Below are positions 1-24,699 of a stretch of DNA of 26,504 nt, piece by piece (the stretch's first letter is position 1; every line of letters begins with the position of its first letter). The notes beneath the pieces were generated by a model. That model was not told where the DNA came from and ran no database searches. It saw nothing but the letters and a program-made list of their open reading frames with translations. The stretch comes from a virus (lineage: Duplodnaviria > Caudoviricetes): positions 1 to 26,504 of IMG/VR virus record IMGVR_UViG_3300039258_000198. One strand, given 5' to 3'. The position numbers were made by a program, and so were the translations under genes.

Positions 1-888
1 GTGACTGAAGAGCCGCATCCAGCAGAGGGATACCCACACAAAGAAGCGGAGTCAGCCTTTCCAGCCTATTGGGGCGAACTGATGTGGGCTATGAGCAGAT
101 TCCAAGAGTCTGGGTATCTTGAAGGTAGGCCAAGTGTGTCAACACCGTCTCCGGCTCCCGGCTCTCCCGCCCTGTTCTATCCTGAACTGACGAAACGCTT
201 CGTAGAACTCATAATGCCGAAACTAGAGATAAAGCAGATTCTTCAAGACTTCTTCATCAGAGTAGGGGCAACAGCCACCATTCCTAAACAGCAAGGGGCA
301 GGGGCTAATGCGCTGATAGGTCGAACTGCCGATGGAAACGGAGTTATGATGGACTTCAAACCTTACGACCTTATCACCATCACACCCTACAAGATTGGAA
401 TGAGAGTCCGGCTTGCTAGAGAGATGCTCGAAGACGGCATCTACACCATCGTAGAAGACCAGTTCAGGAGAGCCGCAACACACACTGCCAACGCCATAGA
501 CAACGACATTGCAAAGGTCTTTGAAGCGGCCAGCAAGAAGAGTTTCAGTTGGCTTCCACACAGGTATCCCCATCTCGATAATGTCATCAAGAACTTGGAT
601 GATGTAGGCAAATACAACGTCCTTATGAACGACAAGAAATACTCGTATGGAGTCAAGATGTCGGGAATCAAGGCTCTGAGAAGCCCGATGATTAATCCGA
701 AAGCGGCCTATGTCGTTCAGACAGCCTTTGACGGATGTTATGCTCCTGTAGGTTACTTCGTCACCAAGCGTCCAATCAGTATAGATGTCTGGCCACAGCC
801 ACAGTTCGACTCGCTCGATGTTGTCATCACTGCTCGATATGCGCCCGTCATCACCTACCCAGAGGCCATAACGCGGTGCAGAGTTTGA
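1..888 (+). CDS. HK97-fold capsid protein paralog (minor/alternative capsid protein)
   Basis: Long near-identical blocks shared with 12043..12978 (ALFYP.L.KR.VEL.MP.L..K..LQDFFI.VG.TATIPKQ.GA; TPYK.GMRVR..RE..ED; TKRPIS.DVWPQP.FDS.D.VITARYAPVITYPE). True start may be ATG 82 or 91 (AMSRFQ resembles AMTREQ). Confidence 0.85.
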   Translation: MTEEPHPAEGYPHKEAESAFPAYWGELMWAMSRFQESGYLEGRPSVSTPSPAPGSPALFYPELTKRFVELIMPKLEIKQILQDFFIRVGATATIPKQQGAGANALIGRTADGNGVMMDFKPYDLITITPYKIGMRVRLAREMLEDGIYTIVEDQFRRAATHTANAIDNDIAKVFEAASKKSFSWLPHRYPHLDNVIKNLDDVGKYNVLMNDKKYSYGVKMSGIKALRSPMINPKAAYVVQTAFDGCYAPVGYFVTKRPISIDVWPQPQFDSLDVVITARYAPVITYPEAITRCRV

Positions 889-1263: not shown

Positions 1264-1650
1264 ATGGCACAAGAGGTATTCAAGGATGAACAGGGCCGGG
1301 GAACGGTCACGTTGATTGATGAAGAGGGAATCAATCCTGAACCCAAATTCCATCCGGCGGCAATCCAGCCTATGAACTTCGTGCCGGAAGACCCCATAGC
1401 AATCTTCGAGAAGCGGATTGAGCAGATAAAGAAGATGATTGAGGAAAAGAAGATAGACTTGGCCATCAACAACACCAAGGCTCTTCAGACGGCTATAGCC
1501 ATGCTCATAACAATGGCCAGCACAAAGCACGACCAACCTCTTCTAGAGAAACTTCAAACAGTCGGAACCAAGGTGAATGAGTTGGCCACCACTCTTGCGC
1601 CTCTAGCCACCCCTATCATCCCTTCTGTGAAACCCAAGGGACAGCCTTAA
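1264..1650 (+). CDS. hypothetical protein, helical/coiled-coil
   Basis: 128-aa ORF with CCTTATAAG about 25 nt upstream; heptad-like central region. Confidence 0.75.
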   Translation: MAQEVFKDEQGRGTVTLIDEEGINPEPKFHPAAIQPMNFVPEDPIAIFEKRIEQIKKMIEEKKIDLAINNTKALQTAIAMLITMASTKHDQPLLEKLQTVGTKVNELATTLAPLATPIIPSVKPKGQP

Positions 1651-7052: not shown

Positions 7053-7853
7053 ATGTCTGAGGATGGCACTCATGAGTTTGTAGGGCATCACGCCTTTGCT
7101 GATTTCTACGGGTGCAAAGGAGACCTAGACGACAAGGAGAAAATGGAAGAGGCCATCTCGCTTGCTATCGAAGCCGCAGATATGGATGAGGTCAAGACCG
7201 ATGTAGTCAACTTTGACCCACAAGGCACGACTGCTATCTCTATTATCACTCAGTCTTCAGTTACCATCCACACATGGCCGGAGTCTGATGGGATGCTAGT
7301 GGATGCCATCACTTGTGGCCCTCATGACCCTCACAAAATCATCGAGACACTTAAGGAGATTTACCAACCTGAGAAAGTCAACGAGTGGAGAGTGGACAGA
7401 GGCGAAGCAAGCAACGAAGTGAAGAGGCTAGAAGAAGACCGAGAGACAGACGTTGCGCCCGTCCCTATAAGATTTCCTGACGAGAAGACAAAGGTGACGG
7501 GAGAGAGCGTTGAGGTCAAGCCCTGCTCTCATGGTCACGGTGTCTTCGCTACCAAGGACTTCGGAGAGGGCGAGACGATTCAAAGTTTTCAGGCTCCCTT
7601 TGTAGAGGGAGACGAAGACCCTTCTGAGGAAGGGACGGCTCTCAGAGTCGGAGACCTGTGGTGGAACGGCCCAAAGGCTGGAACGGAGCAGGAGTGGGCC
7701 AACTTCCTTGACCACAGCGACACGCCCAACGCCAGTTTCTTCGACTTCGACTTGGAGAAAGGCACAGGAAATCTGGTAGCACTTCAAGACATCAAGGTGG
7801 GTGACGAAATCCTCATAGACTATGGGCAGTATGCCCCAGAGAACCTTAAATAG
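7053..7853 (+). CDS. fusion of pyruvoyl S-adenosylmethionine decarboxylase-like (SpeD/SpeH) domain and SET domain
   Basis: Residues ~10-117: GHH..ADFYGC, F.PQG.T, QSSVTIHTWPE, VDAITCG. Residues ~153-260: HGHGVFATKDF..GE.I, NFLDHSDTPNA, ALQDIKVGDEILIDYG. Confidence 0.88.
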   Translation: MSEDGTHEFVGHHAFADFYGCKGDLDDKEKMEEAISLAIEAADMDEVKTDVVNFDPQGTTAISIITQSSVTIHTWPESDGMLVDAITCGPHDPHKIIETLKEIYQPEKVNEWRVDRGEASNEVKRLEEDRETDVAPVPIRFPDEKTKVTGESVEVKPCSHGHGVFATKDFGEGETIQSFQAPFVEGDEDPSEEGTALRVGDLWWNGPKAGTEQEWANFLDHSDTPNASFFDFDLEKGTGNLVALQDIKVGDEILIDYGQYAPENLK

Positions 7854-9026: not shown

Positions 9027-10556
9027 ATGGCTCCGATACCTTCAGACAGAAAAGGGCTTACCCTCAAGTATAGTTCTGGAATCGCACCCCTAGTTACAAC
9101 CAAACGATACGCCGAACTCATTGACAACTACAAGAAGAACGGGCCAAGTGCCTTTCCGCACATTCTAGACCTTGGCGGTATGGCTATTGACACTTCTCGC
9201 AACCGGAACAAGTGGCGTGTGCCTCTCGAAGACCTTCAAGCCATCGCTGACAAACTGAAGGGACTCCCTCTGATGAAAGACCACGACATAGACCACGTTG
9301 ATTCTATCATCGGAAAGGTCGAAGAGGCGTGGGTAGAACCGGATAAGGACGACCCGACAGCAGGAAAAGTCTTCTGGAAGGGCGAGTGTAGCGATGAAAG
9401 CCTCATTCAGAAGATACTTTTGGGCTATGTCAAGCACAACTCGATTCAGATTGCTGTGCCGAGAGCCTATTGCGATGACTGTATGTCCTCACAAGGCAAG
9501 AAAGAAGAGGAAGCGGCCATTGATGACCTAGACCTTCCCTGCCCAAGATGTGGCAGTTTGAATATGCTGATACGCGGCCCACTACCTTTGGAGCAGTCTC
9601 TTGTGGCAATCCCCGCCTATGAGCGTGCAGATGTGACCCCATTCGGGTTCAAAGCCAGCATGGACTTCGCTCTGAGGGCGCGTTACGAGCCTAAAGAAGC
9701 ACCAAAAGCAGTCCCGAAGGTGGCCAAAGTGGTGCGTTTAGACCTCACACCCCTGCTTTTTGAGGCCATGAATGCAGTCGGAATGGTCACTGCTGAAGTG
9801 GCTGAAATGGAACTTAGGATGGCAAAGATGGCCTTAGAGGGCTATCCAGAAGACCGAGTTGAGATTTATTACAGTCAAAAGGCCAAAGACCCGGCCTCAG
9901 ACAAGCCTATAGAGGACATGGGGATGACTCCCGAACAGAAAGCCCTTCTGCATTCTGTGGGGCAACCACAGGAGTTGGGTTCCGCGTGTCCAGACTGTGG
10001 ACAGGAGTTCGGAGAAGAGAGGCTTGCTCTTCTAGACCACATGGAGAAGGAGCATGGATACACGATTGGCGAGACTCTAGAGACCCCAGACCCCTTCGAC
10101 CAGTTCGATGTCTCCAAATGGGACGAAGGAAAAGGTGGCTCATTAGAGGACTTCCCCTTGGTCGAGAAAGGTGGAGAGAAGGATAAAAAGGAAGAGGGCA
10201 AATGCGTATGCGGTCATGTGAGAGGGTATCATCAAGAAGATGGCTGTCATGCACCTACGTCCTATTTTCCGGGCGCGGCTTGCTCATGCACAGTCTATGA
10301 AGAGGCAGGAAAAAAGGAAGAGGCATCTGAATATGTGGGTATGCCCTGTCCCGAATGTAAGATAGGTGAAATGGTTGATGATGGAAAGGGCGGGGCAAAT
10401 TGCCCCAATTGTGGCTGGCCCTCAGATAAGAAAGAAGAAGACAAGTGTATCTGGTGCAATCCAATAGGCTTGAATTTAAGAAGTATTGAGGCAACTCATG
10501 AAGATTGCACCTGTAAAGAGCCTTGTGACGAATCCTTCTGTATGGCGAAGGCTTAA
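9027..10556 (+). CDS. prohead (capsid maturation) protease with zinc-ribbon insert and C-terminal zinc-finger array
   Basis: G.AIDT..NRN.W; LKGLPLMKDHD.....IIGKV; VKHNSI; EQSLVAIPAY..A; lies upstream of scaffold and capsid genes. Confidence 0.8.
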   Translation: MAPIPSDRKGLTLKYSSGIAPLVTTKRYAELIDNYKKNGPSAFPHILDLGGMAIDTSRNRNKWRVPLEDLQAIADKLKGLPLMKDHDIDHVDSIIGKVEEAWVEPDKDDPTAGKVFWKGECSDESLIQKILLGYVKHNSIQIAVPRAYCDDCMSSQGKKEEEAAIDDLDLPCPRCGSLNMLIRGPLPLEQSLVAIPAYERADVTPFGFKASMDFALRARYEPKEAPKAVPKVAKVVRLDLTPLLFEAMNAVGMVTAEVAEMELRMAKMALEGYPEDRVEIYYSQKAKDPASDKPIEDMGMTPEQKALLHSVGQPQELGSACPDCGQEFGEERLALLDHMEKEHGYTIGETLETPDPFDQFDVSKWDEGKGGSLEDFPLVEKGGEKDKKEEGKCVCGHVRGYHQEDGCHAPTSYFPGAACSCTVYEEAGKKEEASEYVGMPCPECKIGEMVDDGKGGANCPNCGWPSDKKEEDKCIWCNPIGLNLRSIEATHEDCTCKEPCDESFCMAKA

Positions 10557-11023: not shown

Positions 11024-11548
11024 ATGGCTACTGTCGCACCTTCTGGTGAAATAAGCGAAGGCAAAACTTTGTCTTATGACCAAGTTGTGAAGCAATTCGG
11101 TGCTCTCGAATCCAAACTTGATGGTCTGATGTCCATAATCAAAGAGGTCAATGTGAAACTGGAACAGCAAGACTCGCTTCGCAAGAGGCAAGCCCTACTG
11201 AGCCAGAGGATTGCTCTGAGACGGGCATCTAACCGCAAGGTTGAAGAGGACGAAGAGGCGAAGCGCAAGAAAGAGGAAGAGGAAGCCACAAAGCGGAAGA
11301 AACTGGAAGAACTGAAGTCTAGGCTTCAGGAAGTCCGGTCTAAGGTTGAGGAAGAGGCCAAGAAACGGAAAGAGGCCACTGCTTCTGCACCTGCCAACAC
11401 TGCCAATGGAAAGGGCAATGTCGGTGAGGTAAAAGAAGAGAACAGTGCTCTTGCCGCTATGGGTATCTCTACCGAAATCCCACCTGAGTTCAAGGAACTC
11501 ATGAGTGCTTCCGATAAGTTCAAGAGTCTGGGACTACTCTCAGGGTAG
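11024..11548 (+). CDS. capsid scaffolding protein
   Basis: E/K/R-rich coiled coil located between protease and capsid genes. Confidence 0.7.
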   Translation: MATVAPSGEISEGKTLSYDQVVKQFGALESKLDGLMSIIKEVNVKLEQQDSLRKRQALLSQRIALRRASNRKVEEDEEAKRKKEEEEATKRKKLEELKSRLQEVRSKVEEEAKKRKEATASAPANTANGKGNVGEVKEENSALAAMGISTEIPPEFKELMSASDKFKSLGLLSG

Positions 11549-11558
11549 GTAATAGACA

Positions 11559-12023
11559 ATGGCTTTCGGGCCACCTTATCTACACGGAAGTTCAATCCCC
11601 GGACTGCTTGAAGGCGCACCCTTCCACAACGACTCGTTCCTTCTCACCTTCAATAGTGAGGCGAATGCAAGCGGCACGAATGTATATGTAGGAGCAATAG
11701 TTACTCTGGCAACCGACAATGACTTTACCTGTGTCGTTCCCGTAGCAGGGGAAGGCGCAGAACTCAAGTTCATTCTTGGAGTCGCTCAGACATCTGGGCA
11801 ACTTCAGAGTGCAATTGATGTCATTTGTCGTGGTGAAGTGACTGTGATATGCGATACCACAGTTACGCCGGGGCAATTCCTTGACACATCAGACACCACT
11901 GGACACGATGGGATGGTTGCGGTTGCGGATACGGCAACTGGCCAACTAAACGCAAGGCTCATCGCCCTTCAGGGATGCACTGTGACAAGCACTCCTCAAT
12001 CCATTGTTGCCCTTCTGTTCTAG
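11559..12023 (+). CDS. capsid cement/decoration protein (DUF2190-like)
   Basis: ILGVAQ.......IDVICRGEVTV......TPGQFL.....DG.V pattern; immediately upstream of the capsid gene. Confidence 0.65.
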   Translation: MAFGPPYLHGSSIPGLLEGAPFHNDSFLLTFNSEANASGTNVYVGAIVTLATDNDFTCVVPVAGEGAELKFILGVAQTSGQLQSAIDVICRGEVTVICDTTVTPGQFLDTSDTTGHDGMVAVADTATGQLNARLIALQGCTVTSTPQSIVALLF

Positions 12024-12042: not shown

Positions 12043-12978
12043 ATGGCAATGACAAGAGAGCAGTTCCCGATAGTTAACACTGGTGCTCTGTTCTATCCAG
12101 CACTGGCGAAGAGGATAGTAGAACTTACGATGCCCAATCTGGCATTGAAGCCTCTACTTCAGGACTTCTTCATCAAGGTTGGTTCAACAGCCACCATTCC
12201 GAAACAAAAGGGTGCTCGCGCCAACGCAGTTATAGGAAAGACTGCGGAAGGGGCCGAGATAATGGCCGACTTCACACCTTACGACTCGATTACCGTTACA
12301 CCTTACAAGGTGGGTATGAGAGTCCGAGTTACCAGAGAGTTGATTGAAGACCAGATAGTGAACATAGTAGAAGACCAGTTGAAACGAGCCGCGAGACGGG
12401 TGGTCATGACAATTGACCAAGACGTTGAGAAGGCTCTTAACGCAGGTGCTCAAACCACCTACGGTGTCACTGGAACTTCAGTGTTCATGGATGGAACGCC
12501 CGGAACATTCGCTAACACGATAGGAGTTAACGACATTACTAACGGTATCCAAGTTGTCCAGAACTTCATGCTGGAACCTGATACAATCGCCATGAATCCG
12601 ATGGCGAATCAGGACTTGGCTAGGATTCCGCAGTTTGCCGCGCTACTCTTCTTCGGACAGCCTGTATACGCACAGGGACAGGGAACAGTCGTTTCCGCCC
12701 CCGCGCTGTATGGACTGAAGCGCATAGTTACCCCGAACATCCCTCTGACTGATGGAACTGCCAACAGTGGTAGGGCTTACATCCTTGCCGCATCAGGTAG
12801 CAACTACTCAGCCGCATATGCCCCGTTGGGCTACTTTGCGACTAAGAGACCCATCAGTGTAGATGTTTGGCCGCAACCGACTTTCGACTCGATAGACACA
12901 GTGATTACTGCAAGATACGCGCCAGTCATCACATACCCAGAAAGTATTGTGAAGATGACGGACTTGCGGTCTGCATAG
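12043..12978 (+). CDS. major capsid protein, HK97 fold
   Basis: 311 aa; IPK...A....AEG.EI; ITVTPYKVG.RV.VTRELIED; PDTIAMNP; LYGLKRIVTPNIP; follows protease, scaffold and cement genes. Confidence 0.9.
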   Translation: MAMTREQFPIVNTGALFYPALAKRIVELTMPNLALKPLLQDFFIKVGSTATIPKQKGARANAVIGKTAEGAEIMADFTPYDSITVTPYKVGMRVRVTRELIEDQIVNIVEDQLKRAARRVVMTIDQDVEKALNAGAQTTYGVTGTSVFMDGTPGTFANTIGVNDITNGIQVVQNFMLEPDTIAMNPMANQDLARIPQFAALLFFGQPVYAQGQGTVVSAPALYGLKRIVTPNIPLTDGTANSGRAYILAASGSNYSAAYAPLGYFATKRPISVDVWPQPTFDSIDTVITARYAPVITYPESIVKMTDLRSA

Positions 12979-23628: not shown

Positions 23629-24699
23629 ATGGGTAATCTTCATCCGAAACTGATAGAGAAACTGAAAGAGATTCGCGCTACCTACCCGAATGTCAATGGG
23701 TATAGCGAAGACCTGAAGGACGAAATCGCTGGCGGCAAAAAGACGGGTCGCAAGGCGATAAGGGTCTATGTCGAAAAGAAGATTCCCACTTCTCAACTGG
23801 CCATATTTCAGACCATCCCAGACGAGATAGAATGGATGATAGACATGGGCGACGGAAAGTTTAAGATGACCACGCCCGTTGACATCGTGGAGATTGGCCA
23901 CCAGAAGATAAGGTCGGCTCCACCCTTTCAAGACCCAACGAAGGCGTTCCGGCCACTCATAGGTGGAATCAGCGTAGGTCACTACGAGATTACGGCTGGC
24001 ACGATAGACTACTTCGTGAAGGACGCATCAGGTCACATCGGCATCCTGAGTAACAACCACGTTTTGGCCAATGAGAACAACGCGAGTATAGGAGACCCCA
24101 TCCTTCAGCCGGGAGCATATGACGGCGGCACTCTACTGACCAGTCAAGTGGCCAAACTCACCAACTTCATTCCCATCCAGTATGACAACGCACAGCCAAG
24201 CAATTGCCCCAATGCGACATTCATCTCTGGTGTTTACAACGGGCTGGCCAAGGAACTCAAGAGAAAGACACGACTACATCCCATAGTTCACCAACTCGCA
24301 AGCAATCTGGTAGACTGTGCTTGGGCCACTCTCAATGACCAGACCAACTTCAAACCAGAAGAGAACGGGCTGTTCTCTCCGGCAGGGATAAGTGCGGCCA
24401 TAGATGGAGACATTGTGACCAAGACAGGGCGCACTACAGGAGTCACTTCTGGGCAGGTGATAGACATCGCTGGAACCATCACTGTCAGCTATAGCGGTTC
24501 CAATGAGGCAACCTTCGTGGAACAGGTCATCACTCAGGACACGACTACTCCATTCAGTGCTGGCGGAGACTCTGGCTCCCTAATCATGAGACAAAGTGAC
24601 CAGATGGCCGTTGCCCTACTGTTCGCTGGCGGTGGCAACACAACCATTGGGAACCACATCTCAGACGTTCTCACGGCTCTCGACATAACCTTCGTGTAA
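23629..24699 (+). CDS. trypsin-like serine protease (Nal1-like architecture)
   Basis: N-terminal I.VYVEKK.P pro-region; RPL.GGISVGH; triad LSNNHVLA, VDCA, GGDSGS; no signal peptide. Confidence 0.88.
   Translation: MGNLHPKLIEKLKEIRATYPNVNGYSEDLKDEIAGGKKTGRKAIRVYVEKKIPTSQLAIFQTIPDEIEWMIDMGDGKFKMTTPVDIVEIGHQKIRSAPPFQDPTKAFRPLIGGISVGHYEITAGTIDYFVKDASGHIGILSNNHVLANENNASIGDPILQPGAYDGGTLLTSQVAKLTNFIPIQYDNAQPSNCPNATFISGVYNGLAKELKRKTRLHPIVHQLASNLVDCAWATLNDQTNFKPEENGLFSPAGISAAIDGDIVTKTGRTTGVTSGQVIDIAGTITVSYSGSNEATFVEQVITQDTTTPFSAGGDSGSLIMRQSDQMAVALLFAGGGNTTIGNHISDVLTALDITFV

Follow-up and report, generated by a model that had tools for sequence, protein, structure and literature searches.

A second capsid gene and the head operon

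The window, by which we mean the whole 26,504-nucleotide stretch of viral DNA analysed, begins with an intact gene (1..888, plus strand; GTG start, 295 aa) for a paralogue of the virus's own HK97-fold major capsid protein (MCP), a type found in 12 clusters. The MCP itself (12043..12978, plus strand; 311 aa) was assigned to the HK97 type by matches to PF25209 and PF05065 above cut-off and by its structure model. Pairwise alignment of the two proteins gave 42% identity (E 4e-77), rising to 62% across MCP 15-133 and 77% across MCP 258-305, and the flank similarity noted in an earlier, sequence-only reading of this DNA is therefore real. The MCP gene lies 11.2 kb from the paralogue, in agreement with the separation of about 11 kb from the capsid genes given in that reading, and the prohead-protease gene (9027) lies 8.1 kb away. 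The first base of the contig is also the first base of the paralogue's GTG. The same GTG is found in near-identical longer contigs (99.7%), where it overlaps the stop codon of a small zinc-finger ORF on its 5' side. In G001, the complete record closest to the window (105,335 bases, with direct terminal repeats and a 99% identical MCP), an ATG stands at this position. Because the longer contigs share the GTG and G001 has an ATG there, we consider the start to be real.

Two parts of the paralogue are conserved with the MCP. Positions 169..516 (plus strand) encode the N-arm helix, E-loop, P-domain strand, and spine helix, and positions 739..885 (plus strand) encode the C-terminal P-domain strands and the last strand, where 15 of 16 conserved MCP positions are kept. 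No Pfam family matched the paralogue at E 0.01, it falls below any curated capsid-family cut-off, and its best PHROG match, phrog_1650 (head protein), is weak (E 1.3e-4). A sequence search with the MCP profile against solved structures gave one weak match, to phage G gp27 (E 0.003). Structure models of the paralogue and the MCP are weak (mean pLDDT 63 and 61; pTM 0.55 and 0.57, respectively); that of the paralogue contains an E-loop, a P-domain with spine helix, and an A-domain sheet. Foldseek returned 240 matches to this model at E <= 0.001, and among the matches listed all were HK97 capsids or encapsulins. Structure comparison (VIA) gave a best Z of 11.1 (rmsd 3.6, 193 aligned), encapsulins being at the top of both fold comparisons, and ESM Atlas matches were to generic capsid clusters. 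The observation of a second capsid gene is confirmed: the gene is real, intact, and under selection.

The head operon begins with a prohead protease-like gene (9027..10556, plus strand; phrog_4523, E 1.5e-5), which has a head-type TATA box 34 bases upstream. Downstream is the gene for a putative scaffold protein of 174 aa (11024..11548, plus strand), for which there was no Pfam or PHROG match and whose identity was called from its position, from a charged helical make-up judged by eye, and from some relatives, such as L028, in which it is fused to the protease. Its C-terminal 30 residues (11456..11545, plus strand) are conserved. A gene for a decoration or minor capsid protein (11559..12023, plus strand; PF23982, E 9e-5, below the curated cut-off) and the MCP gene follow. 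Elsewhere in the window are genes for an S-adenosylmethionine decarboxylase fused to a SET domain (7053-7853, plus strand), with both domains above the Pfam cut-off and a counterpart in the fragment G005, and for a trypsin-like peptidase of the Nal1 type (23629-24699, plus strand; PF25819; phrog_20754, E 5e-52), which is present in G001 and had no match in the complete relatives G002 and G003.

The neighbours of the paralogue are the zinc-finger ORF and a 128-aa ORF. The zinc-finger ORF on the 5' side (L003:5672-6004, L004:8811-9053, L005:9762-10007) contains a Tyr/Pro-rich 18-base repeat whose copy number varies between close relatives. The 128-aa ORF directly 3' (window 1264-1650, plus strand) encodes a conserved helical protein of no known family, which has two copies in G005 and is also found in G003, where the paralogue is missing.

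The N-terminal tag and the predicted A-domain

The approximately 56 N-terminal residues of the paralogue, which the sequence-only reading did not discuss, are its most informative feature. Residues 16-42 (46..126, plus strand) make up a tag, consisting of a helix and a short hook, that replaces the MCP N-arm (MCP 1-14) and is homologous to the last 27 or so residues of the putative scaffold, within the conserved C-terminus that is its source. The tag helix spans residues 22-36 (pLDDT about 80) and is followed by a Pro/Ser-rich linker (residues 43-56; 127..168, plus strand) with a pLDDT under 50, the length of which ranges across the paralogue family from a few to about 40 residues.

An HMM was built solely from 15 scaffold tails and searched against 189 proteins. 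The window's scaffold ranked first, followed by 10 paralogue entries (E 3e-7 to 0.5), all above every other protein. No MCP among the 189 scored above 0 bits, and two entries without the N-terminus, P0007 and P0005, did not match. In a shuffle test, eight of nine paralogue N-termini scored above every one of 1000 shuffles; for the ninth, P0048, four shuffles reached its score. The reverse HMM was run over 15,310 frames of 118 loci and at E < 0.1 recovered only paralogues and frame-terminal scaffold tails. We considered adjacency of the scaffold and MCP genes in some relatives as a source of the fusion, and rejected it on finding the decoration gene between them in 21 of the 21 loci listed.

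The scaffold motif also occurs at the C-terminus of a zinc-ribbon family (P0087-P0089). Its member in G001 is a 91-aa protein encoded far from the head genes (C1:5557-5832, L119), and the tail also ends both homologues of this protein. The zinc-ribbon protein was found in one of five records searched, the one that also carries the paralogue. The DNA pattern of the tag was present at 13 loci in viral contigs, 12 being scaffolds (including that of L015) and one a zinc-ribbon protein, and a homologue search of 1.84 billion representatives gave 77 matches, among them no new tagged paralogue. Because the G001 zinc-ribbon protein and its two homologues also end in it, the tail appears to be portable, and this second carrier is a candidate tagged internal protein or assembly regulator. 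In the literature searched we found no earlier description of such a tag fused to a capsid protein, and no such gene is described in the available text of a paper on Bathyarchaeia viruses (PMC10541130).

The second departure from the MCP is in the centre of the protein. The segment bounded by the ID.D..K and YAP.GYF anchors is 128 residues long in the MCP (12433-12816, plus strand), with 4 K/R and 6 D/E, and 74 residues long in the paralogue (517..738, plus strand), with 11 K/R and 6 D/E. The same segment measured 71-78 residues, with 10-12 K/R, in all nine paralogues measured, and the paralogue centre has a family-specific motif, K-x-x-x-W-x-P-x-R-Y-P. The shorter and more basic centre of the sequence-only reading is borne out by these numbers; the proposal that the centre had been replaced is not, since three strand motifs still align in order between paralogue and MCP. 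C-terminal to the spine helix, the MCP model shows, in order, a hairpin (138-155), one helix (162-174), one strand (179-184), and a pair of helices (186-204); a loop of low confidence (203-219) and two further strands come next. The paralogue model keeps a short first helix and the strands and has no counterpart of the hairpin, of the two subsequent helices, or of the loop. By element order in the HK97 fold, we take the relevant parts of the MCP model to be a5, a6, and the A-loop, so that the paralogue would lack the hairpin, helix a6, the next helix, and the A-loop. This naming fits the description of 80alpha (PMC5644958). The divergent segment thus corresponds, as the sequence-only reading supposed, to the predicted A-domain, the mapping being by secondary-structure order on models of mean pLDDT 61-63, and according to these models the centre appears to be trimmed rather than replaced.

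We also asked which conserved MCP positions, defined as those that are the same in at least 90% of 70 MCPs, are kept by the window paralogue. It keeps 48 of 60 in MCP 15-135 and 259-298 combined and 2 of 3 in the last strand, compared with 4 of 22 in MCP 136-258 and 0 of 3 in the N-arm. Capsomers of 80alpha are held by the E-loops together with a5, a6, and the A-loop, and are joined to each other via P-domain loops (PMC5644958). From these contact roles and from the positions that the paralogue keeps, we predict that its peripheral contacts are retained and the central capsomer ring is lost.

Distribution, descent, and expression

G001 also encodes a portal-like protein (PF04860, below cut-off), a terminase (PF05876), a family B polymerase, and a protease. 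The portal-like, terminase, and head genes are far apart rather than clustered, at 14.8 kb, 45 kb, and 76-79 kb. A 236-aa protein (G001, L122:526-1233, minus strand) matches ribosomal protein S2 over 53 residues (E 4e-13) and is conserved in G002 and G003. Nine cellular-genome loci contain an MCP relative (30-43% identity), eight of them titled Bathyarchaeia or Bathyarchaeota. The hosts are probably sediment archaea, and the MCP relatives point to Bathyarchaeia. No CRISPR spacer matching the virus was present in 401 Bathyarchaeia-class genomes; a 28-base match considered as a spacer was rejected, as it lies within an SSB-like gene where there is no array of repeats. Weak DNA matches occurred in 7 of the 401, five to the SSB gene, one to the AdoMetDC-SET gene, and one to the MCP gene. 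At 1e-20, nine of the 401 matched the paralogue over its N-terminal half only, as ordinary MCPs do, and no paralogue was found in this set, most of whose genomes are incomplete or distant. In six provirus MCP genes of the class (L115, L145, L146, L147, L150, and L153), a stretch of 26-68 bases forming a 3-4-3 bulge-helix-bulge interrupts the gene at one site, and removal at the archaeal splicing-endonuclease positions gives a single MCP frame of 299-305 aa in all six. These interruptions are candidate introns in viral capsid mRNA; the literature searched gave only the cbf5 precedent.

Paralogue-type sequences form 12 clusters at 90%, of which 8 are full length, 3 are N-terminally short, and 1 is internally deleted. 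The full-length clusters are 41-76% identical and share the same indels and new invariant residues. In the deleted one, P0048 (174 aa), the spine-helix region follows immediately on half of the tag, and this entry may be a decaying copy or a misassembly. P0100 (259 aa) is an HK97-like protein related to the MCP group that has a short centre and no scaffold tag, and may represent independent trimming. Trees were made from 167 shared columns with nine paralogues, by FastTree with 79 rows and by IQ-TREE with 23 of these. The paralogues formed one clade, placed among the close MCP group, with a UFBoot support of 98 (23 rows) and a FastTree support of 0.98 (79 rows). The mean depth of the clade was 0.69, compared with 0.15 for 20 neighbouring MCPs; long-branch attraction is possible, and the shared indels agree with the clade. 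The paralogue thus originated from the MCP as an in-lineage duplicate.

Pairwise dN/dS, by simple counting and with some dS values near saturation, was 0.18-0.35 in 9 of 10 pairs among five paralogue copies and 0.08 in the tenth. Six MCP pairs gave 0.045-0.10, so that the paralogue values are 3-5 times those of the MCP, consistent with selection that is purifying but relaxed. These data bear on whether the gene is a decaying relic of a duplication that joined the scaffold end to the MCP. Such a relic could be missing from two of three complete relatives, as the paralogue is, and could leave forms such as the large internal deletion of P0048 and the three N-terminally short clusters, for which contig ends may account. 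Decay is largely refuted, and we give it hardly any weight, because the paralogues form one well-supported clade under purifying selection, with 8 of 12 clusters full length and sharing indels and invariant residues; the doubt expressed on this point in the sequence-only reading is settled in favour of a maintained gene. Between the window and G001, the MCP is 99% identical, the scaffold 100%, and the paralogue 64%. The low dS of the scaffold-MCP block of this pair suggests a recent exchange, so that one MCP coexists with quite different paralogues.

Promoters were scanned for TATA boxes 26-38 bases before the ATG. In the window and in L001-L061 and L119-L136, two TATA contexts could be distinguished: head and presumed virion genes have YTTAAATA approximately 33 bases before the ATG and no AAT(C/G), and in many genes that are small or belong to DNA metabolism AAT(C/G) is present and the distance is approximately 30 bases. 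All 11 distinct protease promoters are YTTAAATA, none with AAT(C/G) directly upstream, and AAT(C/G) was absent from all 45 distinct promoters found for eight genes presumed to encode virion proteins, most of these genes assigned by position alone. The three distinct promoters that serve the paralogue, taken from L003, L004, G001, and G005 (the window does not contain this promoter), each have AAT(C/G) before a TTATA-type box. The same combination was found in both promoters of the exonuclease gene and both of a 213-aa gene. AAT(C/G) was present in 42 of 128 background promoters, 3 of 7 for SSB, 0 of 3 for AdoMetDC-SET, 0 of 6 for the REase, and none for the peptidase. The classes were noticed post hoc and homologous promoters are not independent, and we take the pattern as a hint that regulation of the paralogue is separate from that of the head operon.

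The paralogue is present in one of three complete relatives of approximately 105 kb: G001 has it, and G002 (a provirus) and G003 (with terminal repeats) do not, as determined both by an HMM search that tolerated stops and from the syntenic spot, which in G003 is occupied by other genes. The fragment G005 has both MCP and paralogue, as in G001; 27 further records, mostly fragments or small distant proviruses, yielded no paralogue. Because two of the three complete relatives are without the gene, the paralogue is dispensable, as judged from these three records. An obligatory vertex subunit of the T4 gp24 kind, one form of the vertex-specific subunit entertained in the sequence-only reading, is not supported, given this absence and the lack of distinguishing MCP residues: sorting four MCPs by presence of the paralogue gave 6 columns, compared with 3-11 for other splits, a comparison of low power.

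The main rival to the reading that we prefer is an optional structural subunit at pentamers or the pore, with the MCP filling the vertices where the gene is absent. The retained HK97 fold with its E-loop and P-domain is what such a subunit would need, the gene is on the same strand as the head genes, gp23 A-domain changes can bypass gp24, and there are precedents in gp24 (PMC9958956) and Ccm (PMC8569155). The smaller A-domain would suit five-fold crowding or widen the hole, and the tethered helix would confer independence from the scaffold. An integral part of the shell is harder to reconcile with the loss of the N-arm, a promoter unlike that of the head operon, 64% identical paralogues alongside nearly identical MCPs, the failure of MCP residues to follow presence of the gene (6 columns against 3-11 in four MCPs), and the two complete relatives that lack it. 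We consider this alternative a real but doubtful one.

The patchy distribution, fast evolution, and non-head promoter would also suit a decoy. Bacterial defence systems can sense capsid proteins, and a host sensor of the capsid protein or of a capsid-scaffold complex might be bound, without being triggered, by a single chain that combines the body of the MCP with the tail of the scaffold. This we regard as unlikely, since no sensor was identified, positive selection was not seen except in short stretches of poor alignment, and the literature searched contained no capsid decoy of this kind.

A modifier of capsid size, acting in the manner of Ccm or CpmB, was another suggestion of the sequence-only reading, and the combination of a Ccm-like body with a CpmB-like scaffold mimic would be in keeping with it. 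The genome that has the paralogue (105,335) and those that do not (105,748 in G003 and 106,907 in G002) differ by less than 2% in length, taken here as a proxy for capsid size, and the gene is encoded by a full virus with its own portal and terminase. Size modification is thus very improbable, and of the functions suggested in that reading the more plausible are an optional vertex or pore subunit and a dominant-negative decoy.

Proposed role and relation to known systems

The terminal helix-and-hook of the 80alpha scaffold binds the N-arm helix and the A/P cleft of the capsid protein, and CpmB competes with the same motif (PMC5644958). By analogy, the tail of this virus's scaffold would act like the 80alpha helix-and-hook. 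Our preferred reading, which we hold with a probability of roughly 0.45, is that the paralogue is an accessory protein mimicking the scaffold-bound MCP, one that probably enters shells as they form and either modulates or poisons their assembly. Mimicry is proposed because the paralogue combines a copy of the scaffold-tail helix with loss of the predicted A-domain ring contacts, and accessory behaviour because the gene is absent from G002 and G003, has a dN/dS 3-5 times that of the MCP, and is 64% identical between viruses whose MCPs are 99% identical. The tag helix would bind the scaffold site of a capsid protein, either its own (in cis) or a neighbour's, and the retained E-loop and P-domain would permit entry into the lattice. 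Without a6, the A-loop, and the N-arm, the subunit could neither close a capsomer normally nor be cross-linked by the body of the scaffold, and a small number entering nascent procapsids would slow or misdirect assembly. The non-head promoter may keep the paralogue apart from the virus's own MCP in time or dose, and because of this separation the target could be a co-infecting relative or the timing of the virus's own assembly. For a poison so close to the virus's own MCP some self-protection would be needed, and none was found. Both T4 gp24 and Ccm, which are solved co-encoded HK97 paralogues, occupy pentamers as ordered subunits, and this speaks for a structural role.

A bolder form of the mimic reading, speculative and somewhat unlikely in our estimation, would make the last 27 or so residues of the scaffold a portable capsid address tag, and the paralogue a single-chain mimic built with it and stripped of the helices that close a capsomer, acting either as a poison of relatives' procapsids made before the head genes or as a sponge for a host sensor.

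The paralogue resembles T4 gp24 in being an HK97-fold duplicate of the virus's own MCP with differences centred on the A-domain (PMC9958956). Unlike gp24, which is essential and fills 11 vertices (PMC9958956), it is missing from two of three complete relatives, is predicted to lack a6 and the A-loop, and starts with a copy of the scaffold tail. With Ccm of SaPIbov5 it shares the character of an accessory capsid homologue bearing an N-terminal extension of scaffolding type (PMC8569155). Ccm enters the shell of another capsid protein and changes its assembly; it is satellite-encoded, 24% identical to the helper CP, carries a full delta domain, and shrinks the capsid (PMC8569155). The paralogue differs in belonging to a full virus, in its 62-77% identity to the MCP in the shared parts, in having a tail of only about 27 residues, and in leaving genome size unchanged. 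The Ccm trait of a satellite without head genes of its own is absent here, as G001 has an MCP, a protease, a portal-like gene, and a terminase. The Ccm structure 7rwz ranked sixth against the paralogue model (Z 8.8), tied with other HK97 folds.

Like CpmB of SaPI1, the paralogue is, by sequence, a second protein that reuses the terminal helix-and-hook of the scaffold (PMC5644958), the likeness to CpmB and 80alpha being drawn from the type of motif. CpmB, a small dimer that serves as an alternative scaffold, carries the motif at its C-terminus (PMC5644958), as do the zinc-ribbon carriers; in the paralogue, unlike CpmB, it is N-terminal, about 250 residues from the end, and fused to a capsid body. 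The tag also recalls the T4 capsid-targeting sequence of IPII and IPIII, a short portable tag for routing to the prohead (PMC9958956), a comparison most apt for the zinc-ribbon carriers. In T4 the tag is N-terminal and, as far as that source describes it, not shared with the core scaffold (PMC9958956); that of the paralogue is the scaffold's own C-terminus. Ekchuahviridae are likewise archaeal head-tailed viruses with two HK97 MCP genes, with a separate protease for each MCP and a second MCP that seems to have come by horizontal transfer (PMC9894754); the paralogue, in contrast, appears to be a trimmed in-lineage duplicate without its own protease.

Natural deletion of the A-domain ring contacts, maintained under selection, would allow a test of their part in the choice between pentamer and hexamer and in shell closure, and the zinc-ribbon tail suggests that an archaeal capsid may have a short cargo tag that can be moved between proteins. 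The second HK97 capsid proteins known so far fall into essential vertex subunits (gp24) and satellite weapons (Ccm), and by the tests made the paralogue is neither. By analogy, it would work most like Ccm and CpmB combined and would have arisen like gp24, while lacking a defining feature of each, and in one chain it would join two tricks that staphylococcal satellites use separately, the capsid homologue and the scaffold-tail mimic.
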